Assembly: GCF_037042905.1 (NCBI RefSeq)
Contig: NC_087251.1
Location: forward strand, 40,984,001-41,048,000
DNA length: 64,000 nt
Direction: 5' to 3'
Source: Lytechinus pictus
Lineage: Eukaryota
The notes beneath the pieces were generated by a model that did not search any database, was not told where the DNA came from, and saw only the letters and a program-made list of their open reading frames with translations. Positions within the stretch are counted from its first letter, which is position 1; each line of letters begins with the position of its first letter. This document shows positions 2,446 through 64,000 of the stretch, one piece after another. The position numbers and the translations under genes were made by a program.

Positions 2446-5400
2446 GTACGAAATTAGTCCGGGGGCCCCCGTCGCACAAAGAGTTGCGATTAATCTGATC
2501 AACCACAACTATGGAAAGCCAGCAATGCCAACATCTCACAAGCATATTTGCTCAAATTGTTTTCGAAATATGATGTATACTCATACATTCATTGTTGTCT
2601 TAAAAATTCAGTGTGCTCCTCCTTGTTTAAAAAGGACATTTCTTGTAGCAAAATTACGACATTGATGGATTTCCATATATTTGAGATTGATCGGTTACAC
2701 CTCTTTGTAAGATGGGATCCAGGGGCTCATTTCATAAAGACTTTCAAGCCATTATGTTACCACGGTGGTTACCACAGTGGCAAAAATTACCATAATTGTA
2801 AGTTCTTGATGAAACGGGCCTAAATGATTTTAAAGAGTAATATTCTGCTTATTCAAAGCATCATGCTTCATTCAGTGATCATCAATACGTAGATCTCTGT
2901 TTGTTATGTTTATGTTTTTGTAGTAGTATTTTGCAATTCACGATTTCTTTGAATACCTCATCACATACTTTGTAGTTGATTATACTTTAAACCCTCAAGT
3001 CATTCATTTTTCACTGCATGATATTGGATTGCGAGTATATTAAATGATCATAGAACTAATATTGTCAAGTTGTTTATCAAAACATTTTCTTTTCAGAAAG
3101 GTATTCATATATTGAAGAAAGTTCATCACACATCAATATTCAAAATTAATTTCGATTTTCTTCATGATAGCAGATTTCATTAAAAAAAATGATCTCTTCA
3201 TTTGAAACTGTTTGATTATTTCATTTCAGTATTGAGCTTTACAATCATTCATGGGGTGAGACCAAGGAATGGATAATGGATAAATTCAAAGCTTTGACCT
3301 CCGACGACCCTGGCAACCAAACCCTACCGGCCGAGGCTTTACAAAGAAAGTATGAAAACCTACAGAGAGAACTCACACCCGTCATGGATAAACTACGCAA
3401 ACTGGGCCTCCTCGCCATAGCGTAAGTCTATCTTGAATCCTTGGGAGTGTTTCATGAAACAAATAATGATTTTTGCTGGAAAATCCCTGACAACTGTTAT
3501 AAGCTACTGAAATATTCATGTTTGATTGGCTGAGATCATATTAGTTGGTGAAAAATCACTGACTATTTGTTTTATGAAATGCTCCCCACATGGTTTAGGG
3601 ATATACTATTGCTTGCCAATGAAAAGGATTCTTTCATTTTTTATTCAGAAAGGAGATCGTATTGAAATTGATAATTGATGTAAAGTAATGATTTAACTAC
3701 ATTTAAAAGTTTTTGTTATTTAGATTGTTGGAATGCATTTTAATTTTTATCACCAGCTAATGAGGAAAGTCTTTTAACAGAAATTTGCTTTCTTTTGATA
3801 ATTCCCAGGCATTTTTTGGGTGTATTTTCTTTGTCTCCTGATATTGTATTCTGAATATTGTATTGATGATTGTTTTCAAAGTATTGATATTGACTATTGT
3901 TAGTGTATTCCTGGAAATCAAATAAATAGATAAATATAAAATGATTTTAAATTAATAGCACTTACATTTGCTGTAGATGAATCATATTTTTTTACCTGTT
4001 CAAATGCCCAAACTGGCCGTCATTGATTTGTTTCTCTTAGTGATATATTTTCCTACTAATGGTCTTGGGCCCATGTTTGTTGAAGTAGTATAATATCAAA
4101 ATTTTACATTTTACTTGGAAAAAATAATCATACTTTACCAAATCAAAAAAAAAATCTGTAATCTTCAGAATAACAAATTTTATGGACAATTCCAGAAATA
4201 ATCACCCTCTTTGTATGTACCCCTAATTTTCCCTATTATTACTTCCATATCATGAACTGCTCAAGCTGTTATATATATTAGGATCATTACAAGTTTTCAT
4301 ATTCAAATTCAATTTCCTTTCCAACAGATATGTCATGCAAATAATAACAACATGTATAATTATATTCAATCATATAAATTAAAATTATCATTTAAGGTAA
4401 TATTTGGGTTGATGTACAAAGAATATTTGGTAGACGATTTATAATACATATTTTAGATATAAATATATAAGCATCTGTTAAAAGTTGGGATTCACCGAAA
4501 ACATAGCTTCTACAAATGAAATAGAAAGCAAAGACTATGAACAAGAAATAAGAGATAAAGCATATTAGGGTCCCATATGTCCCATAAGGTCCCACTAGTG
4601 TCCTTTTTAAAAGATAAAAACTCCTGTGTTTATTTTACATCTATAAACTCTCCCTTGGATCATTAATGTACTCTAGTCAGAAAAATATAATTCTTGAATC
4701 ACTAAGAATATATTTTTTCTCTCAATGCAAATACCCTTTCTCATCAAACCTGCAGTCAATCTGATTTTCATATGCCCTCCGTCCGAACTACCTCTACTAA
4801 AAAAAACTATAATGTATTCAGGTCCCAAATTATGGAACTCTCCCCCCCCCCCACACACACACTCAAGAACAGTTTATTCCGTAATAATTTTCAGCATCAG
4901 TATAAAGACATTCTGTTAACCATGTGTCCATTCAGTAACAAATACGTAACTGTAAAATGTCTACGATTTCTGTGTTTGCCTTTCTCCTACACTTAATTAA
5001 ATTATTCTCACTAATTTTTTGTGACTCTCCACACACACTAGTCCTTTTCCTTTTTTCTATCATTCTTCCAGAAAGGCAAACACTTGATTAACACTTGAAT
5101 GATTTTTTTCCCCCTTACATGTTTGTGTCTTTGTATGTTCTATTTTGCATTCCTTCCCTGTTCCTTCTTTACTTGGCTGGAACTTCTAAGATCTATCAGA
5201 TCTCTAACGCCAGTCCACACTCGAAGACTTTTTTGTACATTATTCTACTGTATTGTCATTTTCTCTACCTTGTATTATCGTTCTTTCTTGCCATTATGTA
5301 AATTCTCAGTTACTAGTAGCCTATATATTATGTTATTTTTATCGAGTGGAAATAAATGAATTGAATTGAATTACAATGTATTATTATTACACACTTGTTT

Positions 5401-8400
5401 GAATTGCGATACTTCTTTTTATATTTTGTGATCTACAGTGTAAAAACTTCCTATCCTGATGAGGGTGACCATATCAGCAATCGTCAGGATGAGATTAGTA
5501 AGCTTTGGGATAATCTAGAAGATAAAGCTACTGAGAGGAAGACACAGCTGGCTCAGTCTAGGGATATCACTACATTTCACAATGAATCGAAAGAATTGGT
5601 GAGTGCCAAATGACACAGCCAAGTAACTGATTTGTTTATAAAACACCTATGATCTTGCAAGCATAATTACTTTATGAGGTATATATTAGATATTTGTATA
5701 GCATAGCAAAGGTACTTCCTGCTCTGCTCAGCTACCTTTTACAATGCTCATAGCATATAAAGAATTCCTTCTTGCTAATATCCGGTAATCCCTGTGTGGA
5801 GAATGGCAAGTGTAGATAAATGTCTTTTCTAAGGTCATTGGACTTCTCTCAGAGGATCATTTGAAATTAGAGTATTTGAAAAATTTTCAGGAATTGCATT
5901 GTTTTAGTCTCACCTGAACACAGTTCGGCAGAGACCTAGTGATCACTTTTTCTGTTAGTCTGTTGGTCAGTTAGTCTGTTATTCTGTTGGTCTGTCACAA
6001 AAATGGTAAAGTTTTTTGTTTAACTTGCTGAATTATGATCACATTTGGTACATGTGATCCTTGGGTAATACCACATGTGTGTTCATGAGGATGATAAGGT
6101 CAAGGGTCATCTAGGGATCAAAAGATCATATTGCTTGCATGTGCTATTGATCACAAAATCAGGCGAGACTCATGGTTTGCGAACCGCCTTGATTAATTAA
6201 AGAGAGAACTATTGAGTAAGATATATGATTAACTGAAAAAAGTCATTATGACAGAGCTGGCAAGTTTAAATTTTTTTAGTAAAATAGGTGGGGTTTTTTT
6301 TCATCGCAAAAAACAATTTTTTGAAATATCTTAAGTATGGTGCGAATGTGACAACACTGGCTGTGAGAATGACTGCATGCTTTGCTGTGTATTGTGTTGT
6401 GCCAGCAATTCTTACAATCATATACAGTGTGTACTTACTTGATTTGACCGTGTATAGATTACTTGGTGTAATGAGATGAATGGTAAACTCTTGGACACCG
6501 AGCTAGCTAAAGATGTAGTCGGTTCAGAAGACTTGCTGAAGAGACATGGTGATCTTCTACAGGACATTCAAGCTCATGAAGATAAGTGAGTCTTAGCAGC
6601 GGGTCTTTCATTGGAAATCAGATGATTTGTTTGTTTGTTGACAACTCAATTAAATTTTAATTTCCTCATTATTAAAAAAACTGATGTATATTCTAAATAT
6701 TTTTCCATGCCTCTGTTGCCATTCTTATTTTATACTTAAAAAAAGGGTAAATTCCCACTTGGTCAACACCTACTACTCTGTCTATTTTTTGTTTGTTCTC
6801 TTCCCTTGTGGTCTAATTCTAGTTTATATGTAACCAGTTCATGTAATAGCACTTTGGTTCAACATCACAAAATGAACTGTTTATGAATCAATTTTTCAAT
6901 AAAAATAGTGGAAATCAAACCATCTTGGCATTAGATGAAATGACAATGAGACCAAGCTTTTATTAGACTCAGTGATGGTCAGACCAAATTCATGAGTTCT
7001 GAAAAGATTTGAATTCATGTATTGTTTCTAATGTCACCCAAACAGTTTTAATTCAAATATTTGAAAAAGTATTCTTTTATATTATATTCTAAATTGATAC
7101 ATGGAGTTGACTTTTTTTTTTAGTTTCTGTTTCATAACTTACATTTATTCAGCATTTTCAAGGGTAATACTAGCCATTTATAATAACAACCTGTTTTCCT
7201 TTTTTTCACTAGATTCACCAAACTAAGCAAGCTAGGACAGCAGCTCCTGAAGACGTTGCCCGATTCAGTGACGATCGCACACAAAGTAGAGAAGCTTTCA
7301 ACGATGAAAGAGAGTTTGGCAACACGATGGGACAAGAGGAATAAGCAGCTTCAAGATGCTCTGGATTTAGCTGTGAGTTTATAAATGTTCTATCAGAGAT
7401 TAATGCATAACTATATTCATTGTTTTTTTTTTCTCAGCAACCGAGAAAAATTTCATAGGAATTAGTCATAAAATGCAATAATGTATAAAAAAAAAAACAT
7501 AGGATGAGCCGACCCTAGATGGATTGGGGGAAAAAATGAATAATTGTCATTAATAATGACTATCTGACCAAATCAGTGGATGGTTCCCCCCTTCCAAAAA
7601 AAAAGGGCAAACAAAATTAATTCAACTGAGCTGACACTTCAAAAAACAAAAACAAAACATAATTATGGAGTGGGTTAGCAGAATGTATGAAATTCCTCTA
7701 TTCAGGTTTCATGTCATTCAAAATATGCAAGATGACCTTTATGATCCATCCTTTGACCTCATGAAACTATTCACAAAGAAATCTCACCGCTTTGTTCTCA
7801 TTGGTTTATAGGCATTAGTCAATAACTGAGTGATTCTTTGCTATTTGAGGTCTTTTCAAATGTGTCAAGTTAATAAGAACGTTGAATCTATTCCTTATTT
7901 TTTATGGATTTAGTGCACATGGGTATGTTTATCCTTAATATGATGAAGAAAAAAATAAGGTTGATGATTCTTGAATTCGTTTTTGATTCTGCATCTATCA
8001 ATTATAAACAATTCCTTTTAAGCAGTGGTTCGTTGTGAATTATGAAATTGTCATCTTTGTTGATATATGACTTTCCAAATAAGTATGTGTATAAGAACAG
8101 TAGATCATGTATTTCAAGGGGAATTTTTTCACTCTGTCTCAGTTGATTGATGATTAATGATAATAATATACAACATTTCTTAAGCACATAAAGCAAGGTT
8201 TCTAAGTCTTGTATACAATTAAATAATAATATAGGATTTGTATAGCGCATGTATCCACCTTGCTAGGTGCTCAAGGTGCTCCTATATTACCCCGGCTAAG
8301 CTAGTCTACCAATTCTGGTGCGCACAGCTTTTTGAGGAATTACTTCCTGCCGGTACCCATTTACCTCACCTGGGTTGAGTGCAGCACAGTGTGTATAAAT

Positions 8401-53400: not shown

Positions 53401-56400
53401 TAAGATATCAAACCAGTGTGCTAGTAAGCTATTTCTCTGTATTACCCGGTCCTTTGGAGAAGATTCTAAGCTATCCATCTTCTGATTACTTACTTACATG
53501 CACCCATGTTTTCTGAGCAATTAACTTAAATCTCCACCACCAAAAGTTGTTTTTAGACCACCTTTTAGTCAAGTTAGAATATGTCACAACTTGCCATCAG
53601 TAAACCTGGAGGCAATAGCCCGTATTCTGAAGTCAGGTTTAACTTTGACCGCGGTCTAACTCAGTGCTAAAATTATGGGGAGCCAAAAATTCTGTTTATA
53701 TTGTATATTTCTTAGGTTTACTATTTTGTTTCCTTTTGCTTTGATACGGAAGAAAAATATGTCAGTTGTCATGCCCAGACAATTATGAACTATTTGGGTG
53801 TCATGTGAGTTAATAAATTGAATGTGTACTGTTAGGGATTTCCTGCCCCAATCGGCTCTCCATAGTTAAACCGCAACTTTAAACCAGGGTTTAATTTAAA
53901 CCCAAGTTCAGAATATGGGCCTATGATTCATTTGTATTTTGGGATCTTTATTTGCAGAATTTCATATCGTAAAATCAATTAATTCATTGCTTTTTGTAGC
54001 AAGTTCTGTGTAAGGTCATGTATGGCCACTTTGCAGTTGATAATTTATCTTATCGCAATACATTTACATAAATTGAATCAGATTAAAATTGAATTAAACC
54101 AAGGATGTTGAAAAAAGGTGAGTATACAGATGCAAAAAAGGTATGAATATCTAGAACAGAAACATATCAAGTTCTTCTAATACATCTTTCTTTTTTTTGT
54201 ATTTCCACTTAACATAATATCTGAAATCATTTTTCAATACCATCCAAATTGACAATTAAACAATTTATTACTAAAGTAATTTAACATACATGTATATACC
54301 TTGTAAACTGCATTTTGCGCATAAACTAATAATAGGTTAATCAAATTATATTTGGACTCACTGATGTTAACCAAGGAAGATAATGTTATGCTGATCATGA
54401 GATGGAAAATTGTGAATAGAAAAAAAAAATTTAACAGTGGAGGTGCTGGATATGGAATGATTAATAATTGATGTACACTGTGATAATTTGATGACAATGT
54501 TTTTTCTTATATTCTCCAGTTTTTCTCTGACCTGATGGAAGCTGAATCCTGGATGAATGACAGGCGCCCTCTCGTGACCAGCACAGATTATGGCAAGAAT
54601 GAAGACTCGGTAGTGTCTTTATTGAAGAAGCTAGATGGTTTGGAGCTTGATCTAGAGGGTTACTCAGGAACCCTACAAGCTTTAGCAACAACTGCCAGCA
54701 ATCTATCTGATCCATCTAACCCTGCTGTGAAGGATGTAAAGAAAAGACAGGTTTGGTTTGGAATTTTGATCTTTTTTCTGTGAGGTTCATGTAAATGGTA
54801 TATTCTGATGGTAATGAATATGTGGTTGATTTTTTTAAAAATTCATTTTAGATTAAAAAGGTGATGGGATTGTTTTCACTCTCACAATTCCATGTACCAT
54901 ATTCATTCAGGTGGTTGGTGATTCAATAAAAATTTGTTTTCTTTCTTTGAAATATACTGTTTGATTGTAACTGATATTCTAATGTTTTATTTCAGTAAAT
55001 GGAACTGTACAGTTCTTTTAGCAATAATGTATGCTCTTTGGGCTTGAATAACTGAACAGTCTGTAATATATGTCCATCACTGAACTGGGGATATGAGTAG
55101 CTTTATTTTCCCTAAATAAAGAAGAAAACAATGTGAGCCAATTGAAGGCATTCACCTTCGAAAGTTTCCTCTCTGTTTTAAATTGTTTTTTTTAATGATG
55201 ATATATTACAATGAGAAATATAAAATAGTAAGATTTGATTTTTTTTTATAGTAGTATAGTTTGTAGAGTGATTAGTATCACTAAAATGGTAGGGTGGTAT
55301 GTTTACCAAGTTAAGCATAATTCTGATGCTTTAAAGTTGTACTGTACTTTACTACTTGTAATTTTATTGAGATCATACACTCTCAAAACACTCATTGAAA
55401 TAATGTGCCAGTCGTTGGGAGGTTTTTTTTTCTGGTTATTGGCTCAGTGGGTTTTGCAATGTTAATGCTGGATGAAGTTTTAAATAAACTGGTATTTTTT
55501 CTGGGAGTGTATTCTTATTTTCACTTTGTCGGTGCTGTATTTATTGTTTTGCATATTTAGCTATATGTATTGTAAATTTGTTCTTGAGATTTTCAAATTC
55601 TGGATTGGGGGTCGATAAGAGTTTGATAAATGGGTAATTTCATTGGGTTGGATTCATTTTTGTGTCCCAATTAAATATCTTTCAATGATCACTTCCGTTA
55701 AAAAAAATTGATGTCCCACTCAGGTTTACTAATCAAACATATTGCAATTGCATATTGACGTATTGCAGTTCTAGACCTGACAGTCTATTGCCAAAGATAT
55801 ATGAATGTGATGTCCATGTAATGTTGTTTAAATAATTAATTTGAACTATAACGAATCAAGAAAGATTTTAAGATCAAACCTGAATTACTATGTCAGGATA
55901 CCATCCTCTTATTGACCTTTCAAAACTTAGCCACATCTGAATTGATCTTCATTCAGATAGCATTAGTGATAATACGTTACATGACCGGTTGTGTTGGCTC
56001 AGTTGATAGAGCGTCCGTCTCACAACGGGGAGGTTGGGGGTTCAAACCCCAGCCGCTTCAGACCAAAAGACGTTAAAAGTTTCTGCTACCCTGTTGGCGT
56101 TCAATGATTAAAGGGATAGAGCCTCGTCGATCTGGCGCTGCGCAGCGGCTGCCGGGCTCACGATCAATTGGGGCAAAGCAAATTTTCGGAGTATTTCATT
56201 TCATGTCTATTTCGAACAATAAATTATGGATTTTCATTTTTTTTTTCTGATTTTTTTTTAACCCAATCCGATGGAATTTACCCAAATCTTGTCTCCTCTT
56301 ATCTTAGACTGAGATAGAGAATGAGTATCAGGAGATTCTGGACCTACTTGAGTCGAGGAAACAAGTGTTGATGGGCCATCTTAAACAGTTTGAGTTTCTA

Positions 56401-59400
56401 AGAGAGATGGATGAGATGATGGATTGGATCCAGGAGAAAGAGGTCCTGGCCCTGTCTGAGGACTATGGAAAGGACCTGGAACATGTTGAGGTAAACAGTA
56501 TGAGTCAATCTAATTCCCTATTTTATTTGTTTGATGTTGGGCAAGGATGCAAGTCATGTGATAAAGCTCTGATGTGTCTGTAAAAAGAGGATCTTCTTGA
56601 TAAGGAATGCAACATACAATTAAGATGTTTTTCAATAACGTTTTTAAGACCATCTTTGTTTGATGATTTATGATAATTTACATCAATAACTGGGATATAC
56701 TCATTTGATTTGCTTGTTCATTACGATGAACCAGCACGCCGAATATACAGTACACAATTTTCCTGCGCGCGCGCTACATCTCCCTATGAACGCACTATCC
56801 CAAGATCATCGCGCAATTTGGCATCCATTTCCTCTTTTACTTTCGCCTGCCGCCGTGATCAGACGTTAGCTAAGTACACTCCCACTTTACTATAAAAGTG
56901 TCCGTTGTTTACATATTTATCTATGTATTTACAGCCTATTTCAATCCTTTGCCTTTCGGCTTTAGATTGATTTCATTTATATCATAGTGCATGGAGCATT
57001 CGTGTTATTATTCACGTTTTTCTTTAAATAAACTTGTGAGTTCCGTTTTTCTCACAGACGGGTTGCTTCCGCTTCCCTTACCCGTAGCTCCGCGCACTCT
57101 TCCTGCGTTGCCGCAGGCATTGATACGACGCCAAATCCTTTTTAATTCTTTATTATTCTTGACTTGCACCTTTGCCTCGTCTTGAATTGAATTGATTTTA
57201 TTTCCTCCCCACAGCTTAGGCTATGGGACAGATAGGAGCGTCGTCCTTGTTTGTTCTCAAACTTGTTTTCAACTTGTTCCTTTGTGAGTCGGTTGATTGT
57301 CTCAATCAATCTTTTGTTTGATTAATTGATTGATTGATAATTGTTAATTAACCAATTGGTTAATTGTTTAATTATTAATTAATTTCAATAATTATTTTTG
57401 TATTGAAATTTTTTTTTAGACTTATTGTCTTTAAAAAAAATTTCTCTTAAAATTTTTGGGAAGCCCCCCTGTTATCTATTAGCGTCCTTTAAAAAAATTT
57501 TCGCTAATGAGTTGTCGGCTTTCCAGTTTAAGGGAAGTAAGTTTTTACTTCTTCCTTTCAGATCAGCTCCTTTACTTATTCCTTTGACCCTTGTCAAAAA
57601 AAAAAAAAAAAAACCTTGTTTTTTTTTTTTTTTCTTAGCTGATCCTGGTCTTCGTCCTTGGACTTAGATGTTTCTGTTTTTAATTAATTAACGTCATGTA
57701 TACGTGTAATTGATTAAAAAAAAAAAAAAACTCAGTTTTTTTTTTCCTCACTTCAGCTTCTTAACTTTGTTTGATCTCATGTTTAAGAAGTCGGTCCTGT
57801 TCTTTCCGAAGTTAATTTAATTAATTTTATTATTAATATTTCTGATAAGGATCTTGCTTTGTCACCTTTCTTGTCCACCCACCCCTCCGCCCCCTCTCTG
57901 TTTTCGACCCTCCTTTTGTTCTTTCAGCTAAGAACTTACCAGGTAGATCAGCTCTTTTGACTCCAAACCTGCCGCTGGGAGAGAACCAGACATGGTATTA
58001 TTGTTCCCGTGATCAGCGGCGTTGAGTATGAGGGCAAGAGAGTGAGACCCTTTGCGATGGGCGCTATAAAGGGTGGAACCGTGGAGTTGCGTCCACGTGC
58101 CTTGGAAAAAGGAGGGTGGAACCGTGGAGTTGCGTCCACGTGCCCAAGAGGGTGGAACCGTGGAACCGCGCCCACGTGCCCGAGCGTTTTAGGGTGGAAC
58201 CGTGGCGCAGCGGCCACGTGCCTGAAAGGTGATAGCCAAGGCTCCCTCGACGGGACCTGAACCTATTTTGGGGAGTGTTGTACTAGTATAGAAAACTTCA
58301 CTCCTCCAGGGCTGCTTTACCCACCGGCTATCGGGTCCAACAAGTCCGGGTTAAGAGCATGGGACTCTTTTCCCGGCACAGACTAGGCTCGATGCTTTGT
58401 CAGTCTCCTTCAGGGAGCATTAGCAAAGGGCTACCAGCCCCTAGTCGCTAGAGACACGTGAGCTCGACTCCGTCAATCTCACGATTATCTGATCAGGGTG
58501 GAACCGTGGAATCGCGTCCACGTGCCCTTAAAGGTGGAACCGTGGAATTAGCGTTCATGTGCCTAAACGGCTTGATCAGATTTGGGTGATTTTTTCTCAT
58601 GCGAGATATCACGTCCCCCCTGTCTCTTGTGCCCTCTTCTGCCCCCCGGAAGGGGCCGCATAGAAGAGGAAGAAGAAGAAATTCTAGGTTGCTAACCCCG
58701 CTTGGCGGGCAGACCCTTTCTTTCTGATTCTTGTGCCGATGGTCAGGCGTCGTAACTTCATGTTACAACAGAACGCCCTCGAGCATCACAGATTTTTATC
58801 CTCATGCTCTCTGTCAGCTAAAACCGCCGTGTCTAACACCGGGCAGGTCAAGCAGACTTTCGCCATCTCACACCTCGGAGAGTCACCGGCAATTTCATGA
58901 TTCGCCGGCTCACGCACCTGCAAGGGAAATTCCCGCTAATACACAGGTGTTATCGACATACGGGCATCGTCCCCCATTATGTCACCAGACTCCCGCTTCA
59001 TGTCAGCTTCAGCCGCCGTGCTAAGCACCGTGCGGTTCAAGCAGTCACCTGCCCTCTCACGCCGGGCTTTTATTGAAACGCTGTTCACCTACACGGTGAC
59101 CCCGTTTCCATGCAGGTGCTTCCAACATACGGCTTTCAAGCCAACATGTCGGCAAGCTCTCGATGACCGACGGCTGGACGTTGCATCCTTACAGGTTGCA
59201 TCAACACGTCCCGAGCATTACGGGTTCTTACCCTCGTGTTCTCCATCATTACAGACCGCCGCTACGCGACGGCCGGGCTTATCAACAGCCTCGCACCAGC
59301 CACCGGCCCCTTTCTTTGAAATTGCCGGCCCTTTCACCCGCACGGGTGTTTTCATGATATGCACAGGTGCTGCTGACGTATGGGTCTCACCCAGCAAGTC

Positions 59401-62400
59401 GGCAAGCCCCCGTATGTCGCTGGTTGGACGCTGTAGCCGCTTGGCTGTTTTCTGTCGGTCTTATTGCCGGTGACGGGCATTGAGCGGATTGAGTTTCTCC
59501 CGCCAGCCCGCACTCCGGGGAGCCGTCGGCGAGTTCACCTGCATGGGTATCCCCCATTAATATGCAGGTACTCCCGAATTCGCCCTCTACAGTACGTCAA
59601 GCCTCACAGTTTGACCGGGCATCGCTTACTGCAACGGCTCTTTCAGCGGTAACTCTCTCCATTCTACCCCCTAGGCGGGCCTGTAGATTGGAGGTAAGAA
59701 TTTCTAACATACCGCATGCCTTCCTTCTCTCATGAGAATGTTTGGCTGTTTTTGAAAGGGCAACCTATCACGCCCGCGGACCGTCCGCCCAGGCGACGGG
59801 ACCGTCAGCTTTTGGCTTGAACCTCACTTTCTATACGAAAGTAAGGGTGCCCTGTCTTTACTTTTAACTCCTTCTCTTCCTTGTAAGGTTAGAGTCAGGG
59901 CTAGTACAGACACCCGTCCTCCAGCGATCGCCGCTGTAGTGAGGGCGACTCTGATATTAGCACCATCACCACTCAGCGGTATGTCTCACTATCTCATAGC
60001 TCTGCCGAGCTTATGAGCATAAATATCGGATCTGAATGTCACGGCGATTAATAGTTCTCCTATACTTAATAATCGCTATGCCTTCACCACCCGGTGCATT
60101 ATGGTTATTTTGTAACCTATTTGTCTCGTATTTGGGCGGCTCGTGCGAGCCCTGCCCGAGCTGCCATCATCGGTCGTCCCCCCGGACCCCGCCGGCAGCA
60201 CCCGCACCGAACGCCCGGAGGGAATCGGCTATTTATATGCCAGATACCCCTCCTGTTGACATTCACAACTTGTTCCCCGAGTCTTTCCCGGTCGGGTAAG
60301 CATCATCTCGGTGGAAAGAAACAGCAATATATATCTCTTTAGATTGTCGGCTGTGTGCTTGCGTTCAGGCTTGTTTCAAGCCCCAGGTTTTTTCTGTCGG
60401 CATTTCTATGCCTACTTCCTGGGCGCACCCACCGTGCCGGGTCGGCGAGTTCACACCAAACTGTCCGCCACCAGGCCATCGGTCGAGCTCAAACAGTCTA
60501 TCCGATAGACTGCCCTCTATGTGGGTCAAGCTTGCGGGCGTCTCCGCCGCTTCCTCGTGTGGAGTGGGCTACGGTCGATGCATTTACCGTGCCCGTGTGT
60601 CGAGTTGTCTTCTTTTTAGAAGCTTTTTCACTCGGCACACTTGAGTCGCCTCGCAGGCTGCTTTCATCCTCCTTCCATGCTATGTATGTGACCATGGTCA
60701 CTGAGTGACCGAGGATGATGTAATCGTGGTGGATATACATTTATGTATAAAATGTATACGTGTGTGTATGCATACTTATGCCTGTCTAGCCATGATCACC
60801 ACGACCCGCTTTCTCTCGGGCCGACTGTGGATGAGTCCCTCCATGAAAGTGATTTACTTCACTGGAGTTCTTCTTTTTAGAAGCTTAGATTCTCATCCCC
60901 CGCTGCTTAGGGCGTCATTTTTGCCGCCCTCCGCAGCTTCTCGGAACTCCTTATCTTTCCGATATCGGACTGTTCCATGTTGTTGCAACCAGCGCCGGCG
61001 GTGCTTGCCCTTGCGATCACCAGAGAAACCAGGCCTTGTGGCTGTTTTCGTAAACAACTGGTTCTCATCGCAGACTGAGGGAAATATTGGTGATTATTTT
61101 CCTCAAGTCGCCTTTCTCCTCCGCTTGTTTCGTCAAGCGAGGACTTAGACACTCTTAGCCAGTTTCCGTCCCTAACCTTGATAGGACAGGGCCGTTGTTA
61201 CCTTACTCGATTCCGTTGGGAACGTAACTGTTGAGGTATCATGTCTGGCGTTGTCTGTTGGTTCAGAACATCTTGACCGACATCTCTTGATCATCGTTTA
61301 CACGTAAGATCATGACAGAGACATTGTTCGCCAGCTCATCTCTGGCGTACGCTTGCTGCGACTAGGGATTACTCCGCTCAGCGGACATCCATCGTAGCCT
61401 AGTCTTACGGGCCCTCTCGGCGATGGTGGCTTCAGCCAAACCACCGCCCACCTCTCCCGCCGCGGGCACTGCACCCTCGGGCGGGTGTTTTATTTAGTAC
61501 GGGAGAAAAGGGATCCGCTGTCTATCACACTTATTATGTCGTGATGCGTGCCGCGTTTTGCTCCGACACGCCCGTTTGAGCTGCTTTGACCAGACTGTTC
61601 TATCCTACATAGACAGCAGGTCCGTGGCAATTTCTTATTAACAGGATGGCACTCAGTCGCTTTTCTCGACACATTGACTGCCTTACGAGTGGTTTACTTC
61701 AACCTTACTCTCTGTCGTTCCATGTCCTTATCGGACCGCTGGAAACGTCCTGCCACAGCTCTCTATCAGAATTCTGCAGATGTTCTGCCCTCACGCATTT
61801 GAGACAGATATCGAATTCTGGGCACCTTCTCCCACGCGGGGGCTTCTGAGATATCTCGCATTCCTTACGTTTGCATGGTTGCGGCTTGGCTTAAATTATT
61901 AAGCCGGTGACTTGACCGTGGCTTTTATTAGCCCCGCTGTCGCCTTCTCAGATTGATTGATTGATCACTTACTGAACCGTACAAGTTTCAGTCTTCCGAT
62001 CACGATTCTTGTCGAAATTTTCAACAAAATCGGATCGTTTTTTGATCATCGGCAATTATCATCCCTCCGGTTACGGATGATTAATACCTTCAATCCGAAT
62101 CTTACAACCTCTTAAGTTCTTCTCAAACGTTGAGCTTGTATGGCCTAGTCCGTCATGGCACCTGTCGGTCGTTCTTGACGCTTGACTAACTCCCTCTGGG
62201 ATCGGTATTCAGGGTATCTTTTGTCTGTCTATCAGCCGAGATCCCTCCTGTATCTGTTTATATATAACCATTTACAGTACTAAGCTTTGCATACTTATGC
62301 ATCGCTCCCGGACCGTTGCCGGGATTGGCTTAGATTAGGTGTGACTTCTAACCCTCTTCTTTGTTTGCCATTCTTCAGACAATTCCCAACTCTGTGAAGT

Positions 62401-63829
62401 TGGTTGTTTTGTCGCGCAAGCCGTTTGCGGCAGCTTCTCGAGACATCTTTCACGCTGGATTGTTGAAACGATCAAGTCAGTTGGTGATGATGTTCTCCTT
62501 CAGACACTAGGCCGAGGGCCCATGATATTATAGTATCATTCTTCTTGGGCTCTTTCTATGGAATCGTCGTATACGACATCTTGAGGACCGCCTTTTTGGC
62601 GCTCTTCTAATTCCTTGTTCTTAAGGACCTTTCTTCACATGAGGCCTTATTTGCCTCCTCTGTCCTTAAGGCAGCGGCCTTTCGTGTCTTCATCTCCCTA
62701 TTTTTGTACGCACTTTCTTAGTCTAGACATGCCTCCCTTCACGTTGAATCCGTGTTGGTCTAGCAAATCAAATGAGTATATCCCAGTTATTGATGTAAAT
62801 TATGAAAATACTTACGTTTATTTTCTTATTTACAAGATAAATGGATATACTCATTTGAACCCTCCCACCTACCCCTCGCCTTGCGTGGCAACATGTCTTG
62901 CGTGCAGGCTCATGAGAGGAAATGGACGCCAAATTGCGCGATGATCTTGGGATAGTGCGTTCATAGGGAGATGTAGCGCGCGCGCAGGAAAATTGTGGAC
63001 TGTATATTCGGCGTGCTGGTTCATCGTAATGAACAAGCAAATCAAATGAGTATATCCAGTTATCTCGTAAATAAGAAAATAAACGTAAGTATTTTCATAT
63101 TTCTTGACAATGTTATCATTAAGTTCATTGTATCTTACAAAGTTAGAAATGGTAAATAAAATAACAAGGATTTCTGAGGCCCAGTTCTGATAAATTATCT
63201 CTTAGGGTTTAAGGCTGCTCTGAACTAGTCACTGTTGCATCTGCACCCGACCACGCCATGGAACTTTCGTTCTGTTGCTGTGTACCCGTGAGGATGATGA
63301 GGGTGCTACTGTACATTTAAAGAGATATTTTCCCTCCTGTTTTAAATAATTCTGAATAATTGATAGTGCTACTTGTGGATCTGAAATGTCTTGCATACTT
63401 TTTAATAACGTTTATTAGGCATTTAATCTTCATTTGCCACTCTCCACCCAGGTGTAGTAAATGGGTACCTGGCAGGAAGGAATTTCTTGAATGCTCGAGC
63501 GTCTGATCAGGGTAGCCGTGCTTAAGCCGGGGTAATAGTATGCAGCGCTTAGAAACATTTATATTAAGCGCTTTATACATGTTGCATATTATTAGCATTA
63601 TTATTAATAACATTTTTTCCTCTCTTGTATTAATCAGATATTGCAGACAAGGTTCAATAGTTTCACTAAAGACATCCTGACCAACGAAGGTCGTATCAGA
63701 GCTATAGGTAACAAGGCAAACACCCTTATCAAGAGCGGTATTGATGAGGATGATACCGTAGCAACGAGATGCCAAGAGCTTGAGATCAGATGGGATGAAC
63801 TCAAGGAGGCTACTAATGCCAGAACACAG
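2189..63829 (+). CDS. SPTBN5: Beta-heavy spectrin (SPTBN5/karst-like), partial spliced CDS: 44 exons, about 22 spectrin repeats; gene extends beyond both window ends
   Basis: Exons join in frame to 2305 codons with recurring spectrin motifs (W..EK, DYGKD..SV..LLKKH, KHQAFEAE). More than 17 uninterrupted repeats argues against conventional beta-spectrin; no SH3 in about 22 repeats argues against alpha-spectrin. Orthology is inferred, not searched. Confidence 0.85.
2463..2720. mobile_element. MITE family C (GGCCCCGTCTTACAAAGAG-type TIR)
   Basis: Imperfect TIRs; internal sequence similar to the copies at 21928-22170 and 32511-32777. Confidence 0.7.
2722..2820. mobile_element. short MITE
   Basis: GGGGCTCATTTCATAAAGACTT ... 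AAGTTCTTGATGAAACGGGCC imperfect TIR, directly adjacent to the preceding MITE. Confidence 0.55.
3230..3421 (+). CDS. SPTBN5: spectrin exon 2
   Basis: cag|IELYNHSWGETKEWIMDK...LGLLAI|gtaagt. Confidence 0.9.
3443..3587. mobile_element. MITE family F (GGGAGTGTTTCA TIR)
   Basis: TIR plus core GTTATAAGCTACTGAAAT..TGATTGGCTGAG shared with 14720-14859 and about 32825-32945. Confidence 0.7.
5439..5598 (+). CDS. SPTBN5: spectrin exon 3
   Basis: cag|VKTSYPDEG...FHNESKEL|gtgagt. Confidence 0.9.
5902..6193 (+). mobile_element. Helentron/HINE-like non-autonomous element
   Basis: AGTCTCACCT subterminal repeat mirrored by AGGCGAGACT, TCTG-type microsatellite, GGTCAAGGGTCA, 3' hairpin GGTTTGCGAACC. Confidence 0.5.
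6458..6585 (+). CDS. SPTBN5: spectrin exon 4
   Basis: tag|ITWCNEMNG...DIQAHED|gtgagt. Confidence 0.9.
7213..7372 (+). CDS. SPTBN5: spectrin exon 5
   Basis: tag|FTKLSKLGQQL...LQDALDLA|gtgagt. Confidence 0.9.
8222..8490 (-). mobile_element. tRNA-derived SINE (family S1)
   Basis: Reverse strand shows A/B-box head (GTTCGAATCC) and the shared core TGCACTCAACCCAGGTGAGGTAAATGGGTACC; copies at 20560, 30710, 44077, 63420. Confidence 0.8.
8763..8840 (+). CDS. SPTBN5: spectrin exon 6
   Basis: tag|ILNREADQIDVTTSGHEDFLDFNDLG|gtaagt. Confidence 0.9.
9847..9986 (+). CDS. SPTBN5: spectrin exon 7
   Basis: cag|STVESVISLLKRHEDF...KHYAKN|gtgagt. Confidence 0.9.
10261..10569. mobile_element. MITE family A (GGCCCGTATTCTGAAGTCAGGTTTAA TIR)
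   Basis: TIR of about 28 bp; six related copies in the window. Confidence 0.88.
10611..10734 (+). CDS. SPTBN5: spectrin exon 8
   Basis: cag|VVSRRDEV...FVRDADE|gtaatc. Confidence 0.9.
11302..11448 (+). CDS. SPTBN5: spectrin exon 9
   Basis: cag|ISSWLAEK...KHQAFQAE...LNE|gtaggt. Confidence 0.92.
11695..12352. mobile_element. piggyBac-like MITE
   Basis: TTAA|CCCTAATTTAACTGG ... CTAGTTAAGTAAGGG|TCAA. Confidence 0.65.
12590..12853 (+). CDS. SPTBN5: spectrin exon 10
   Basis: tag|TGTALVDS...DVGHDLRSVKSLLKRQQ|gtcaag. Confidence 0.9.
12881..12994. mobile_element. 114-bp hAT-like MITE
   Basis: TIR of about 30 bp CAGTGGCGGACCGTGACCCG(A/G)AGGAGACAAA; perfect 8-bp TSD ATGCAATT. Confidence 0.9.
13575..13705 (+). 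CDS. SPTBN5: spectrin exon 11
   Basis: tag|VLDAEMSLQ...GHFDKDKI...FTQ|gtgaat. Confidence 0.9.
13743..14370. mobile_element. TA-flanked (Tc1/mariner-like) MITE with a nested TIR element at 13855-14284
   Basis: TA|CAGGGAAACCCG ... CAGGTTTGCTG|TA; inner CCAGTTCGTAGTT / AACTACGAACTGG flanked by TATA. Confidence 0.6.
14720..14859. mobile_element. MITE family F abutting the exon 12 acceptor
   Basis: Same core as 3443-3587; right TIR GTGAAACACTCCCC directly precedes the acceptor CAG. Confidence 0.7.
14863..15049 (+). CDS. SPTBN5: spectrin exon 12
   Basis: cag|FNELEGPAEKRR...MLKKHQ|gtatac. Confidence 0.9.
16124..16324 (+). CDS. SPTBN5: spectrin exon 13
   Basis: cag|KLEAEITGHQPVI...AFEAQK|gtaagc. 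Confidence 0.92.
16819..16935 (+). CDS. SPTBN5: spectrin exon 14
   Basis: cag|YYSEAVEAESWMTEK...DYGKDEDAT...KNK|gtgaat. Confidence 0.92.
16958..17294 (+). mobile_element. Helentron/HINE (DINE-1-like) element
   Basis: TTTTATGCCCC subTIR, internal GGGGGCAT, GTCC microsatellite, 3' GCGGGGGCAT plus hairpin GTGTCC-TTT-GGACAC and CTAG end, in a T-rich site. Confidence 0.65.
17663..17776 (+). CDS. SPTBN5: spectrin exon 15
   Basis: cag|ALELNIEHYE...ITEKQ|gtacgt. Confidence 0.9.
17851..18344. mobile_element. TTAA-flanked (Kolobok-like) MITE
   Basis: TTAA|AGGAAAATGAAACCCTTGAAACAGGTT ... AACTTGTTCCAAAGGTTTCATTCCCCCT|TTAA. Confidence 0.8.
18434..19518. mobile_element. TIR DNA element with 4-bp TSD
   Basis: GCAT|CAGTCAGACGGCAGGTCCC ... 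GGGACCTGCTGTCTGACTG|GCAT; internal inverted repeat about 18830-18850 / 19097-19119. Confidence 0.8.
20349..20531 (+). CDS. SPTBN5: spectrin exon 16
   Basis: cag|EELVNQYK...SSEEYGQDYEHLE|gtaatg. Confidence 0.92.
20560..20855 (-). mobile_element. SINE family S1
   Basis: Same core and tRNA-like head as 8222-8490; (TAA)n tail. Confidence 0.8.
21286..21431 (+). CDS. SPTBN5: spectrin exon 17
   Basis: cag|ELSKKFDEF...EKQDSL|gtgagt. Confidence 0.9.
21569..21769. mobile_element. MITE family D
   Basis: GATGTTTCACAAAG ... CTTTGTGAAACATC TIR; inverted relative to 40260-40468. Confidence 0.75.
21928..22170. mobile_element. MITE family C
   Basis: CCCCGACTTACAAAGAGTTATGATTGAT / ATCAATCATAACTCTTTGTAAGATGGGG, CTG-flanked. 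Confidence 0.8.
22454..22762. mobile_element. MITE family A
   Basis: Same TIR as 10261; reverse orientation. Confidence 0.88.
22885..23297. mobile_element. TA-flanked MITE with internal GCCGATGCAGAATCGGC repeats
   Basis: TA|CCGTGTTTACAC ... GTGTAAACACGG|TA. Confidence 0.82.
23450..23763. mobile_element. MITE family A
   Basis: Close reverse complement of 10261-10569. Confidence 0.88.
24231..24345 (+). CDS. SPTBN5: spectrin exon 18
   Basis: cag|QALDMLM...IHQFNRDYEEAMSRIQ|gtaagc. Confidence 0.9.
24370..24875 (-). mobile_element. LINE (L2/CR1-group) 3' fragment
   Basis: ORF2 C-terminal motif HASPLLHQLHWLPV...YKCLH...PSYL...LRS...GDRTF on the minus strand. Confidence 0.8.
24878..25259. mobile_element. 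MITE family E
   Basis: CTCATCCACTTTCTTGAACTGG / CTAGTTTGAAGGAAGTAGATGAG; related partial copy at about 50090-50448. Confidence 0.6.
25901..26011 (+). CDS. SPTBN5: spectrin exon 19
   Basis: cag|EKYAIIPDELGKDVNSV...KHEAFENDLVALEQQ|gtgaga. Confidence 0.92.
26673..26852 (+). CDS. SPTBN5: spectrin exon 20
   Basis: cag|LQSLVNEAVRLQDEYPGEN...FHRLMAT|gtaagc. Confidence 0.92.
27120..27471 (+). repeat. Degenerate 130-bp tandem triplication across the exon 21 acceptor
   Basis: Acceptor-equivalent positions at 27165, 27295 and 27425, exactly 130 apart. Confidence 0.8.
27426..27629 (+). CDS. SPTBN5: spectrin exon 21
   Basis: cag|CKDLIKWS...LIQQGHFARQE|gtagat. Confidence 0.9.
27591..28124 (+). repeat. 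8-unit 63/77-bp minisatellite built from the exon 21 3' end and donor
   Basis: Units start at 27591, 27654, 27731, 27794, 27857, 27934, 27997, 28060. Confidence 0.95.
29177..29326 (+). CDS. SPTBN5: spectrin exon 22
   Basis: aag|IQERIEAVL...LSSQQE|gtaggt. Confidence 0.88.
29346..29955. mobile_element. TTAA-flanked (Kolobok-like) MITE
   Basis: TTAA|AGGGATGGTCCAGGCTG ... CAGCCCGGACCATCCCT|TTAA with long subterminal inverted repeats. Confidence 0.88.
30710..30996 (-). mobile_element. SINE family S1
   Basis: tRNA-like head, shared core and (TAA)n tail. Confidence 0.82.
31051..31155 (+). CDS. SPTBN5: spectrin exon 23
   Basis: cag|VYLQSSDMGATVEEVEAQIKKHEAFEKVLATQEEK|gtttgt. Confidence 0.92.
31357..31535 (+). 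mobile_element. tRNA-headed SINE (second family)
   Basis: GTGGCCGAGTGGTCTAAGGCG A box and GGTTCGATCC B box, followed by GTGAGCAAGGCATTTAA body. Confidence 0.7.
32283..32377 (+). CDS. SPTBN5: spectrin exon 24
   Basis: tag|TSTLQVFGSQLMEEGHFDS...EVTK|gtgaga. Confidence 0.9.
32511..32777. mobile_element. MITE family C
   Basis: GGCCCCGTCTTACGAAGAGTTACGATTGATCC TIR; CAG/CTG flanks. Confidence 0.8.
32977..33067 (+). CDS. SPTBN5: spectrin exon 25
   Basis: tag|RARLRDLSAERR...QFNRDIAE|gttagt. Confidence 0.9.
33657..33812 (+). CDS. SPTBN5: spectrin exon 26
   Basis: tag|AQAWIGEK...LQKHQAFEAEIKAN...VKQ|gtaatt. Confidence 0.92.
35391..35582 (+). CDS. SPTBN5: spectrin exon 27
   Basis: cag|EGESLLKQQH...EKWTREK|gtaaat. 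Confidence 0.9.
35660..35875. mobile_element. MITE
   Basis: GTTGCAAGAAA..TTGCAATCAATCGCAA / TTGCAATTGATCGCAAGTTTCTTGCAAC. Confidence 0.6.
36141..36224 (+). CDS. SPTBN5: spectrin exon 28
   Basis: cag|EVMVSAHDVGNDYEHCMELQKKLNDIGS|gtaagt. Confidence 0.9.
36255..36630 (+). mobile_element. LINE (L2-like) 3' fragment
   Basis: APEYL...YTPSRNLRS...RFAVAAAKTWNAIP...FKSSLKT followed by an (ATT)n tail. Confidence 0.8.
37053..37261. mobile_element. MITE with TTAGGG-like internal tract
   Basis: GACATTTTCTCCAGCGACAATCGCTCC / GGAGCAATTGTCGCTGGAGAAAATGTC; half copy at about 44553-44600. Confidence 0.75.
37887..38008 (+). CDS. SPTBN5: spectrin exon 29
   Basis: cag|DLSVDDVYVNQM...EDIKT|gtaaag. Confidence 0.9.
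38514..38628 (+). CDS. SPTBN5: spectrin exon 30
   Basis: tag|WQALQSGL...IHAFNRDIDDVMERISEK|gtatca. Confidence 0.92.
38658..39052. mobile_element. Harbinger-like MITE (AGGCCACCGCACAC TIR)
   Basis: TTA|AGGCCACCGCACAC ... GTGTGCGATGGCCT|TTA. Confidence 0.8.
40260..40468. mobile_element. MITE family D
   Basis: GGGGTGTTTCACAAAG / CTTTGTGAAACACCCC, CTG-flanked. Confidence 0.85.
40667..40780 (+). CDS. SPTBN5: spectrin exon 31
   Basis: cag|RNAMDIDEVGKDVSSVESLQRRH...TRLK|gtagga. Confidence 0.9.
41406..41588 (+). CDS. SPTBN5: spectrin exon 32
   Basis: tag|ELKNAAAVL...FYKDYREM|gtaagc. Confidence 0.87.
41872..41973 (+). CDS. SPTBN5: spectrin exon 33
   Basis: cag|MSWTGQVINHMTSGELAK...LHKERK|gtaatt. 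Confidence 0.9.
42442..42570. mobile_element. CAG-flanked short MITE
   Basis: CAG|GGGCCCATAACACAAAGCTTAGC ... GCTAACCTTAGTGTTACGGGACC|CAG. Confidence 0.8.
42812..43078 (+). CDS. SPTBN5: spectrin exon 34
   Basis: cag|AEIDGRNAKF...WLATKEAFITQEDAG|gtgagt. Confidence 0.92.
43320..43490. repeat. (TTTA)n microsatellite, degenerate
   Basis: Direct inspection. Confidence 0.9.
43777..43949 (+). CDS. SPTBN5: spectrin exon 35
   Basis: tag|DSLTMVESMARKHEGFEK...QAIAD|gttagt. Confidence 0.92.
44075..44333 (+). mobile_element. SINE family S1
   Basis: GTGGTCTAGTGGTTAAG head, core TGCACTCAACCCAGGTGAGGTAAATGGGTACC, ATT tail. Confidence 0.82.
44340..44500 (-). mobile_element. LINE (L2-like) 3' fragment
   Basis: YGDGAFSSVATRLWNSLP on the minus strand. 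Confidence 0.7.
45090..45327 (+). CDS. SPTBN5: spectrin exon 36
   Basis: tag|RDKLYNETE...KLQKHQAFEAEL...SIQQ|gtttgt. Confidence 0.92.
45338..45781. mobile_element. Harbinger-like MITE (same TIR as 38658)
   Basis: TAA|AGGCCACCGCACACCT ... AGGTGTGCAGTGGCCT|TTA; starts 10 nt after the end of exon 36. Confidence 0.8.
46176..46476. mobile_element. MITE family A
   Basis: Same TIR; closely matches 22454-22762. Confidence 0.88.
47110..47247 (+). CDS. SPTBN5: spectrin exon 37
   Basis: cag|RGEAMIEKEHHAA...LQQAYK|gtagga. Confidence 0.92.
47851..49073 (+). mobile_element. hAT-like deletion derivative with 6-bp TSD
   Basis: CATAAG|CAGAGCTTCCAAG ... GTTGGCAGCTCTG|CATAAG; subterminal CTCCCG repeats; GC-rich interior followed by a possible transposase N-terminal stub at 48601-48690. 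Confidence 0.75.
49687..49812 (+). CDS. SPTBN5: spectrin exon 38
   Basis: aag|AHVLQRTIDEMSDWL...DVGKDMASVKHLIKKHQ|gtaggt. Confidence 0.88.
50590..50720 (+). CDS. SPTBN5: spectrin exon 39
   Basis: tag|AVNLDVESYEEK...TVYQ|gtaagg. Confidence 0.9.
51248..51434 (+). CDS. SPTBN5: spectrin exon 40
   Basis: aag|YDAVNELAAKR...DYGSSLTAVQNLFKRHQ|gttagg. Confidence 0.9.
52027..52227 (+). CDS. SPTBN5: spectrin exon 41
   Basis: tag|ILESEITAHEQLI...ALDIQK|gtaaga. Confidence 0.92.
52287..52699. mobile_element. MITE with long, near-perfect TIRs
   Basis: About 70-bp TIR GGCCCGAATTCACAAAGGTGGTTTTGAAAACCCACGG...TTTCCTGTA, matching at both ends. Confidence 0.92.
53617..53921. mobile_element. MITE family A
   Basis: Same TIR; forward orientation. 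Confidence 0.88.
54520..54750 (+). CDS. SPTBN5: spectrin exon 42
   Basis: cag|FFSDLMEAESWM...DYGKNEDSV...VKKRQ|gtttgg. Confidence 0.92.
55984..56240 (+). mobile_element. tRNA-headed SINE (third family)
   Basis: TGGCTCAGTTGATAGAGCG A box and GGTTCAAACCC B box, followed by non-tRNA body CAGACCAAAAGACGTTAAAA. Confidence 0.7.
56308..56490 (+). CDS. SPTBN5: spectrin exon 43
   Basis: tag|TEIENEYQE...SEDYGKDLEHVE|gtaaac. Confidence 0.92.
56677..56835 (+). repeat. DIRS left inverted terminal repeat
   Basis: Reverse complement of 62915-63063 with two substitutions and one 1-nt indel, read by eye. Confidence 0.92.
62415..62632 (+). pseudogene. Frameshifted C-terminal remnant of the DIRS tyrosine recombinase
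   Basis: KPFAAASRD / LSRWIVETIK ... RAHDI ... ILRTAF / WRSSNS in shifting frames; resembles the DIRS YR box II region, with the HxxR arginine lost. Confidence 0.7.
62762..62858 (+). other. DIRS internal complementary region (ICR)
   Basis: First half is the reverse complement of the left end (TTTACATCAATAACTGGGATATACTCATTTGATTTGCT); second half is the reverse complement of the right end (TCAAATGAG...CGTAAGTATTTTCATA). Confidence 0.92.
62915..63102 (+). repeat. DIRS right inverted terminal repeat plus right extension
   Basis: Inverted copy of the left ITR followed by a unique extension of about 40 nt that the ICR matches. Confidence 0.9.
63420..63610 (+). mobile_element. SINE S1-related 3' part
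   Basis: CTCTCCACCCAGGTGTAGTAAATGGGTACC core, GCCGGGGTAATA, ATT tail. Confidence 0.7.
63638..63829 (+). CDS. SPTBN5: spectrin exon 44
   Basis: cag|ILQTRFNSF...ATNARTQ|gtgaga. Confidence 0.9.
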
Positions 63830-63881
63830 GTGAGAAGCAGATAAAATCCTGTGATGGATGTAAATATCTGTAAATCACAAA

Positions 63882-64000
63882 GGCCCGTATTCTTAAGTCA
63901 GGTTAAACTTAGACCATGGTCTAACTCTGTGCTAAAATTATGGGAAGCCAAAAGTCTCAATTTTTATTAAGTTGCATTTTTTTTTAATGTTTACTGTGCT
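63882..64000. mobile_element. MITE family A (truncated by window end)
   Basis: Matches the first about 120 nt of 10261-10569. Confidence 0.85.

Follow-up and report, generated by a model that had tools for sequence, protein, structure and literature searches.

A non-coding DIRS1-type element in a spectrin intron of Lytechinus pictus belongs to a multi-copy lineage probably mobilised by an intact family that shares its ends

The 64,000-nucleotide stretch of Lytechinus pictus DNA that we analysed (hereafter the window) carries a host spectrin intron which is occupied, in sense orientation, by a DIRS1-type retroelement devoid of intact coding sequence (Table 1). The intron is spliced out whole, as the exon join is present in one X17 read, nine X19 reads and one X13 contig. 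In approximately 6% of each of three raw RNA runs, the depth over the element was 0-3x, mostly in sense orientation and possibly intronic, and the coding part of the likely helper (family A, see below) was hardly covered. The X13 contigs, which report presence only, cover nearly all bins of the element with a summed depth that rises to the 3' end, and the coding parts of family A thinly. The spectrin introns on both sides also contain very high-copy host repeats with heavy read pile-ups (55990-56230, 63426-63600 and 63880-63960), the first of which looks tRNA-derived and SINE-like by eye.

The ends of many copies define a non-autonomous element of 6424 bp that starts with ATT and whose internal complementary region (ICR) has an AAT junction, as in most DIRS1-like elements according to the available text of PMC3266345. 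A first-pass annotation of the window, made from the sequence alone, had placed the element at 56677-63102, an extent that is corrected here (Table 1). Its description of the repeats was accurate: the 143-nt arms of the inverted terminal repeats (ITRs) differ at 56752 and 56823 only, and the ICR matches both ends of the element, with its left part identical to the first 38 nt (38/38, 100%) and its right part 95% identical to the right end (58/61). The TTT termini that it had reported are not those of the element, because the base preceding TTTAC was A in 42/42 left ends read (40 distinct, two being re-reads or duplicates), whereas the triplet following ...TTTTCATA was ATT in 23, TTT in 10, ACT in 7 and another triplet in 13 of 53 cases (including one false hit and one duplicate). 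Since the left ATT is fixed and the right triplet varies, the element starts with ATT and the right TTT is target DNA; an NTT triplet is thus found at both ends, one of them target-derived, with no target duplication. The expected empty site should accordingly read GATA-TTT-CTTGAC rather than GATAA-TTT-CTTGAC.

The polarity of insertion is strict over 40-50 loci, in that the left triplet is always the ATT of the element and the right one always the variant of the target. A staggered two-strand exchange with random resolution would yield both outcomes, and the polarity fits a cut to the left of the triplet or a one-strand exchange. No terminal direct-repeat arrangement of the kind seen in the split direct repeats of PAT-like, Ngaro or VIPER elements was found in the element, just a 33-nt overlap between ICR and ITR, and an Rfam search of 55500-64000 gave a single chance match, to MIR828 on the ICR (27.5 of 69 bits).

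Table 1. Features of the element and its host intron (positions in the window)
Feature	Position	Strand	Basis
Host spectrin intron (GT..AG, 7147 bp), element in sense orientation	56491-63637	+	Pfam Spectrin in both flanking exons
Whole non-autonomous DIRS1-type element	56676-63099	+	Homology between copies ends here; flanks unlike between copies
Left terminal triplet ATT, element-derived	56676-56678	+	Complementary to ICR junction AAT; A precedes TTTAC in 42/42 left ends
Left conserved ITR	56693-56835	+	143 nt, 2 mismatches to right arm; 94-100% to likely helper in first three 50-column windows
AT-rich 5' untranslated region, apparently old and vertically inherited	56853-57960	+	Colinear with likely helper 1-1959, ~63% overall; 94-100% between the two young subfamilies
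Decayed gag-derived region	57994-60072	+	tblastn to gag of likely helper, E 5e-22 and 0.004; sliding alignments; self-BLAST
Six GTGG-loop-CCAC hairpin repeats at gag start	58070-58575	+	Three in likely helper; candidate cis signal
Tandem-duplication relics lengthening the gag-derived region	58736-58995, 59167-59412	+	Self-BLAST
Decayed RT/RNaseH/methyltransferase and YR N-terminal region	60460-62376	+	Global alignment to likely helper; no motif intact
YR C-terminal segment, apparently captured from the helper lineage and since decayed to ~79%	62377-62721	+	Tree and AU test
Internal complementary region (ICR)	62762-62858	+	Left part 62762-62800, right part 62798-62858, junction AAT 62798-62800
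Right conserved ITR	62915-63057	+	98-100% to current likely helper
Right divergent ITR and extension	63058-63099	+	Copied in right ICR
Target-site triplet TTT, host DNA	63100-63102	+	Varies between copies

The longest stop-free frame of the interior is 177 aa, well within the range of 200 shuffled sequences (median 161, 95th percentile 229), and none of eight interior frames gave a Pfam match that reached or neared the cut-off, in line with the earlier remark that no long ORF remains. The catalytic motifs and the open reading frames for gag, RT/RH/MT and YR that characterise an autonomous DIRS1-like element are missing here and present in L058, an intact copy of family A. Sliding local alignments to family A are nonetheless colinear, with z values of 56-97 at the very ends and of 3-15 in most interior windows (6/32 windows were not above controls), and a global alignment of the RT-YR part reached a score of 735 (controls 2 +/- 49) with 135 gaps, 104 of which are not multiples of 3 and shift the frame. 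Colinear alignment above controls in most windows, together with the interior tree described below, indicates that the interior descends from a DIRS1-like element.

The first-pass annotation had also listed seven peptide traces in canonical order, and all seven lie at the positions given, but they are not of equal worth. The three YR words (LSRWIVETIK at 62447, RAHDI at 62515 and WRSSN at ~62597) are real (tblastn E 3e-13 and 4e-7), ATVDAF (60568) aligns to ITDDAF at the start of the helper RT frame, and LVLIA (61058) adjoins the YLDD position, where no DD remains. By contrast, PGFY (59062) and RVF (59343) are not RT motifs: they lie between stretches that align to the gag of family A and are chance words in gag-derived DNA; RT homology begins near 60460. 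The strongest coding trace, the gag start at 58109-58490 (tblastn E 5e-22), had been overlooked. Most sister copies carry a further 254-bp duplication in the gag region that is absent from the window copy.

A search of the genome with the whole element returned 511 candidates, and all 22 that were scored (window copy included) were ~92-97% identical; the 3' 403 bp returned 451 candidates, with 40/40 scored at 93% or more. The 20 fetched 3'-end matches are of two kinds, non-coding copies and loci that share the ends only (L055-L063). Two of the latter, L058 and L061 (family A), have three open frames of 692, 665 and 970 aa, one of them gag-like, with matches to RVT_1 (E 3e-24), RNaseH, Phage_integrase and, weakly, a Dam-like domain, and the closest named relatives of their RT are Lytechinus proteins (88-95%). 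The ends of the element are 94-100% identical to those of family A and the interior ~50-66%, at which level the alignments are gappy, whereas young non-coding copies are 96-99% alike. By marker 22-mers (up to one mismatch), of which that for the non-coding family lies in the interior, the non-coding family has 110 hits and family A 17 (0 for reversed controls), and two exact ICR variants occur at 55 and 52 places, parasite and helper together. What was found is therefore a set of dispersed copies with distinct flanks and common lesions (21 shared deletion blocks, see below), and not a single copy with private lesions, along with an autonomous DIRS family in the same genome that has the matching cis ends. 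For the end variant of a second young subfamily, no autonomous partner was found among the fetched groups.

Several further observations concern these loci. The YR frame of L058 (5206-8207), open over 970 codons, overlaps almost the whole RT/RH/MT frame (~640 codons), and the genome contains other RT groups of the DIRS order, at least three in number, whose open frames measure 600-950 aa and which are 28-42% identical to family A. Parasite, helper and fossil copies cluster in the genome (G000 C2:39.7-44.5 Mb, C5:35.6-38.2 Mb and several contig ends), and some of the clustered copies are nested or in tandem (L055, L101, L103 and L133); the clusters are possibly pericentromeric sinks or reflect a preference for older DIRS copies. 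A further copy, of an intermediate subfamily, lies ~15 kb past the end of the window (G000:C7:41061698-41063361). Foreign insertions interrupt two copies (L032:1493-3413 and L049:2309-5675, oriented coordinates), the one in L032 having long terminal inverted arrays of a 15-bp unit and a foldback-like appearance. L065 and L148 (on C27 and C9) have the same element, internal deletion and flanks; they represent either an uncollapsed haplotype or a segmental duplication, and the copy numbers given here may be slightly too high for that reason.

Older members of the lineage were reached through L117, a locus from the RT search that matches both family A and the element weakly. A search with L117 gave 243 candidates whose best non-self matches were 65-88%, showing that L117 has no young siblings. 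We fetched 16 L117 matches and four copies of the intermediate subfamily and computed a tree of element positions 4400-5650 from 72/82 loci (3 failed the cover filter and 7 partial ones were dropped). The interior tree has one non-coding clade (support 100) in the form of a ladder that climbs from 58-67% up to 99% identity, and a careful 20-row tree repeats the ladder with high support, with terminal branches falling from 0.08-0.11 to 0.003-0.006. From the deepest nodes to the window copy the backbone measures 0.40-0.46 substitutions per site, against 0.08-0.135 for the branches of those fossils themselves; for family A the corresponding values are 0.11 for the backbone, measured from a node of similar depth, and 0.13-0.14 for the fossil branches (deep branch lengths are approximate, the alignments being gappy). 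Set against the autonomous groups, deep, middle and young copies have 21 deletion blocks (444 bp) in common, 14 of these blocks not being multiples of three as the aligner cut them, so coding capacity was gone before the oldest fossils.

Composition points the same way. CpG observed/expected is 1.06-1.10 in young copies and 0.65-0.84 in the four deepest fossils measured and L137-L138, young copies have 52% GC compared to 35% for the host, and T has risen from 0.26 to 0.31-0.33 on the sense strand only, which is not the pattern of a long rest in host DNA. From these trees and compositions we infer that the lineage replicated while non-coding, gaining its changes over many copying cycles rather than in a resting copy, and that coding was lost early in an autonomous relative that would be sister to the fossils L115 and L100. 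The long-lived non-autonomous lineage proposed in the first-pass annotation is thereby supported, and the mobilisation in trans that it also proposed would, under the published DIRS model, be the work of family A proteins. In that model each round of replication copies the ends anew from one another, and the identity between the two ITRs therefore dates this insertion only.

The ends have a history of their own. In a 26-row tree of the YR tail (the C-terminal segment of Table 1), middle and young copies nest inside the A lineage and old copies do not, and monophyly with the old non-coding copies is rejected (p-AU 9e-51); over this non-coding tail of 330 bp, identity to family A rises abruptly, from 61-64% to 82-84%. 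For the last 426 bp, a clade uniting all non-coding rows is likewise rejected (AU, p = 0.012), and the subfamily of the window copy pairs with current family A (support 100/99), while a single clade of the two young subfamilies is not rejected in this segment (AU, p = 0.26). The distribution of informative sites speaks for a recent exchange: sites that group the two young subfamilies to the exclusion of A number in the hundreds in the interior but are absent from element positions 1-176 and 6046-6426, where 13 and 20 sites, respectively, unite the subfamily of the window copy with A (the two ITRs are not independent). The ends of the oldest copies form their own clade, with 62-70% identity to every autonomous group fetched (L115, L100, L114, A and B), among which their original helper was not found. 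The trees make a clear case that the 3' 750 bp were captured once from the A lineage in mid-history, and the ITR and ICR of the window's subfamily were probably refreshed later from current A, although the direction of this exchange is not fixed. Template switching between co-packaged RNAs is the likeliest route of capture, with gene conversion in a master copy as the alternative. The first-pass annotation had taken pristine ends on an eroded interior as an argument against decay in place; this interpretation is supported, but the ends appear to match the helper because they were replaced by recombination, beyond mere conservation.

We therefore consider it highly likely that the element is a recent copy of a multi-copy, protein-less DIRS1-type lineage that was copied and inserted by the enzymes of intact family A, with which it shares its ends, that kept replicating after the loss of coding and whose ends were swapped in from A. 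Following the published DIRS model, the Gag of the helper would package a sense transcript and its RT would reverse-transcribe it, both ends would be restored by means of the ICR, and the helper tyrosine recombinase would insert the element at an ATT-like triplet. Historically, an autonomous relative would have lost its coding early and gone on replicating, its interior drifting at several times the rate at which copies decay at rest; an exchange with helper RNA or cDNA by template switching would then have replaced the 3' 750 bp once, with the DIRS cycle re-making the left ITR, and a probable refresh of ITR and ICR in the window's subfamily would have followed.

The likeness of the ends could instead have come from selection for recognition by the helper or from gene conversion in the genome, in a lineage that is non-autonomous all the same. 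The ends are functionally constrained, both kinds of copy cluster in the same regions (e.g. C2:40-44 Mb and C5:35-38 Mb) and the AU test for a recent refresh is not decisive, but a non-coding YR tail that nests inside the A lineage is beyond the reach of selection, and we regard this account as unlikely compared to exchange during replication. That the true helper is another DIRS family, B or a further one, with A merely sharing the ends, is very unlikely: additional RT groups (at least three) do exist and B scores slightly above A against two interior segments, but the 3' and 5' ends of B are just 66-74% identical to the element, compared to 94-96% for A, on which ground B was rejected as helper, and the fetched B copies have partial frames only whereas A copies have all three open.

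Even less credible is a scenario in which one dead copy, long decayed in place, was given working ends by a single recombination and amplified in one burst. The abrupt passage from helper-like ends to a ruined interior and the near-identity of the young copies would both fit, yet intermediates at every level from 99% to 58% make up a ladder-shaped series, which refutes a burst unless misalignment has created the ladder; the backbone also exceeds the fossils' own branches by a factor of 3-5, and young copies have retained the CpG that old ones have lost. Semi-autonomy, in the form of a short protein encoded by gag-derived sequence, is also highly improbable. In the second young subfamily a frame of 264-297 aa free of stops does recur, but its changes fall 30/32/34 by codon position, the fraction of them that is synonymous (0.29) is close to expectation (0.28), both the window copy and older copies have it disrupted, and BLASTP finds no match to helper gag at E<1; the recurrent frame (272 aa) was rejected as a gene for its neutral pattern of change. 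Assembly errors in an otherwise intact element are hardly conceivable as the source of the frameshifts, as the lesions are common to dozens of loci, contigs from an independent run (X13) align to 250-514 nt stretches of the interior, showing 1-4 differences and at most one gap, and helper copies are intact in the same assembly.

The interior is also of interest as RNA. It folds with a mean z of -1.85 +/- 0.26 (41 windows), where a shuffled copy gives +0.09 and host DNA -0.29 (50 windows), and a random change of 0.2 per site erases this signal; the 1.25-kb test region taken alone is noisy (-0.64 sense, -1.97 antisense). The element is thus hairpin-rich, as had been proposed, but no more so than the intact helper (-1.53, 44 windows). 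With the window copy as reference, paired columns are conserved at 0.844 and unpaired ones at 0.762 in middle fossils (permuted 0.81 and 0.80), and double changes keep pairing in 49/90 cells (0.54; permuted 0.40 +/- 0.06, maximum 0.49), while L142 as reference gives no excess (paired cells 0.78 versus 0.77, double changes 0.48 versus 0.46). Since the permutation understates variance, pair conservation gives moderate support to a selected fold. GTGG-loop-CCAC motifs number 6 in the window copy, 3 in L058 and 2-7 in loci of the non-coding lineage, and the hairpin stretch at the gag start is the best conserved of the interior (75-77% to helper).

Length has been kept with gains and losses: the RT-YR part lost several hundred bases and the gag region gained tandem duplications. 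In a set of 26 two-ended non-coding copies, biased to long ones, 14 measure 6.3-6.8 kb, 4 are longer and 8 measure 2.9-6.0 kb, whereas 5/8 two-ended copies picked by the 3' end alone are internally deleted; one internal deletion is common to two copies, the L065/L148 pair with its common flanks. The near-full length noted in the first-pass annotation is therefore a feature of the main line, next to which copies with internal deletions occur often. It is plausible that a rule of length or fold governs the element, the interior probably being still selected as folded RNA, although copying errors that perfect palindromes could also make hairpins. We tentatively raise the possibility that the dead interior is a selected RNA scaffold, in which case DIRS particles would require genomes similar to the helper's in length and fold, the RT-YR deletions would be offset by gag duplications, the gag hairpins would have gone from three to six, folding at helper level would have been kept through at least 0.4 substitutions per site, and a change of helper would have been survived by end capture. 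If so, the lineage would amount to a defective-interfering genome that has long persisted beside a tyrosine-recombinase retroelement, and the ladder would chart both the cis rules of DIRS replication and its mutation rate in the absence of constraint.

DIRS elements are widespread, and the experimental tests that we found concern Dictyostelium only, with no packaging signal, size limits or recombination described. The locus offers a natural donor/helper pair and a fossil series in one animal genome, in which the features kept by the parasite (ends, gag hairpins, folding and rough length) form a shortlist of candidate cis needs, and the ladder serves as a relative clock, with the non-coding line running at 3-5 times the rate of resting copies and the coding helper at ~1 time. 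A switch of helper through capture of ends, a process known in the LTR elements of plants, is here extended to elements with inverted ends. Such families escape protein-based repeat annotation despite outnumbering their helpers.

The element shares with DIRS1-like elements, as presented in the available text of PMC3266345, PMC7192593 and PMC9210276, a conserved and a divergent ITR, a right extension, an ICR with AAT junction and an ATT start, as well as the gag / RT-RH-MT / YR order, traceable here by alignment to family A. It differs in having no encoded protein, a separate long history and, by marker count, a majority of ~6 to 1 over its helper. In Dictyostelium, DIRS-1 has been shown to require its ICR and to have an RT that works in trans (PMC7192593, available text). 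In the openly accessible literature searched, we found no account of a DIRS lineage of the ITR/ICR type that is full-length, non-autonomous and paired with a helper, and the available portions of PMC9210276, PMC8498967 and a sugar beet preprint contain nothing on such a lineage.

The nearest parallel is the wheat Copia family RLC_Angela, for which the accessible text of PMC9744471 describes full-size degenerate partners whose LTRs cluster with those of the helper, and a helper switch. Helper-like size, degenerate coding, a monophyletic interior, terminal repeats that group with the helper and the helper switch are common to both, whereas Angela is a plant LTR/integrase system with partners >85% identical (here ~50-66%). 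Compared to Angela, the ladder of single fossils here dates the steps and shows the contrast in rates. TOC1 of Chlamydomonas has split direct repeats and is ~5.7 kb long. It has been called a non-autonomous DIRS retrotransposon (PMC9940879, available text) and, like SIRE/VIPER of trypanosomes (PMC6681497, available text), resembles our element as a protein-less member of DIRS order that depends on a helper; SIRE differs as a short deletion derivative. A zebrafish repeat is named DIRS-N1 in the part of PMC5400779 available and was compared by name alone. Non-autonomous endogenous pararetroviruses of grasses have non-coding ends homogenised with their partner by recombination (PMC5491270, available text), and LARDs (the same sugar beet preprint, in part) are likewise long non-coding retro-derivatives, both with other replication and insertion chemistry. 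The general phenomenon thus has precedents, and the feature described here works like a DIRS1 donor rather than an autonomous member.
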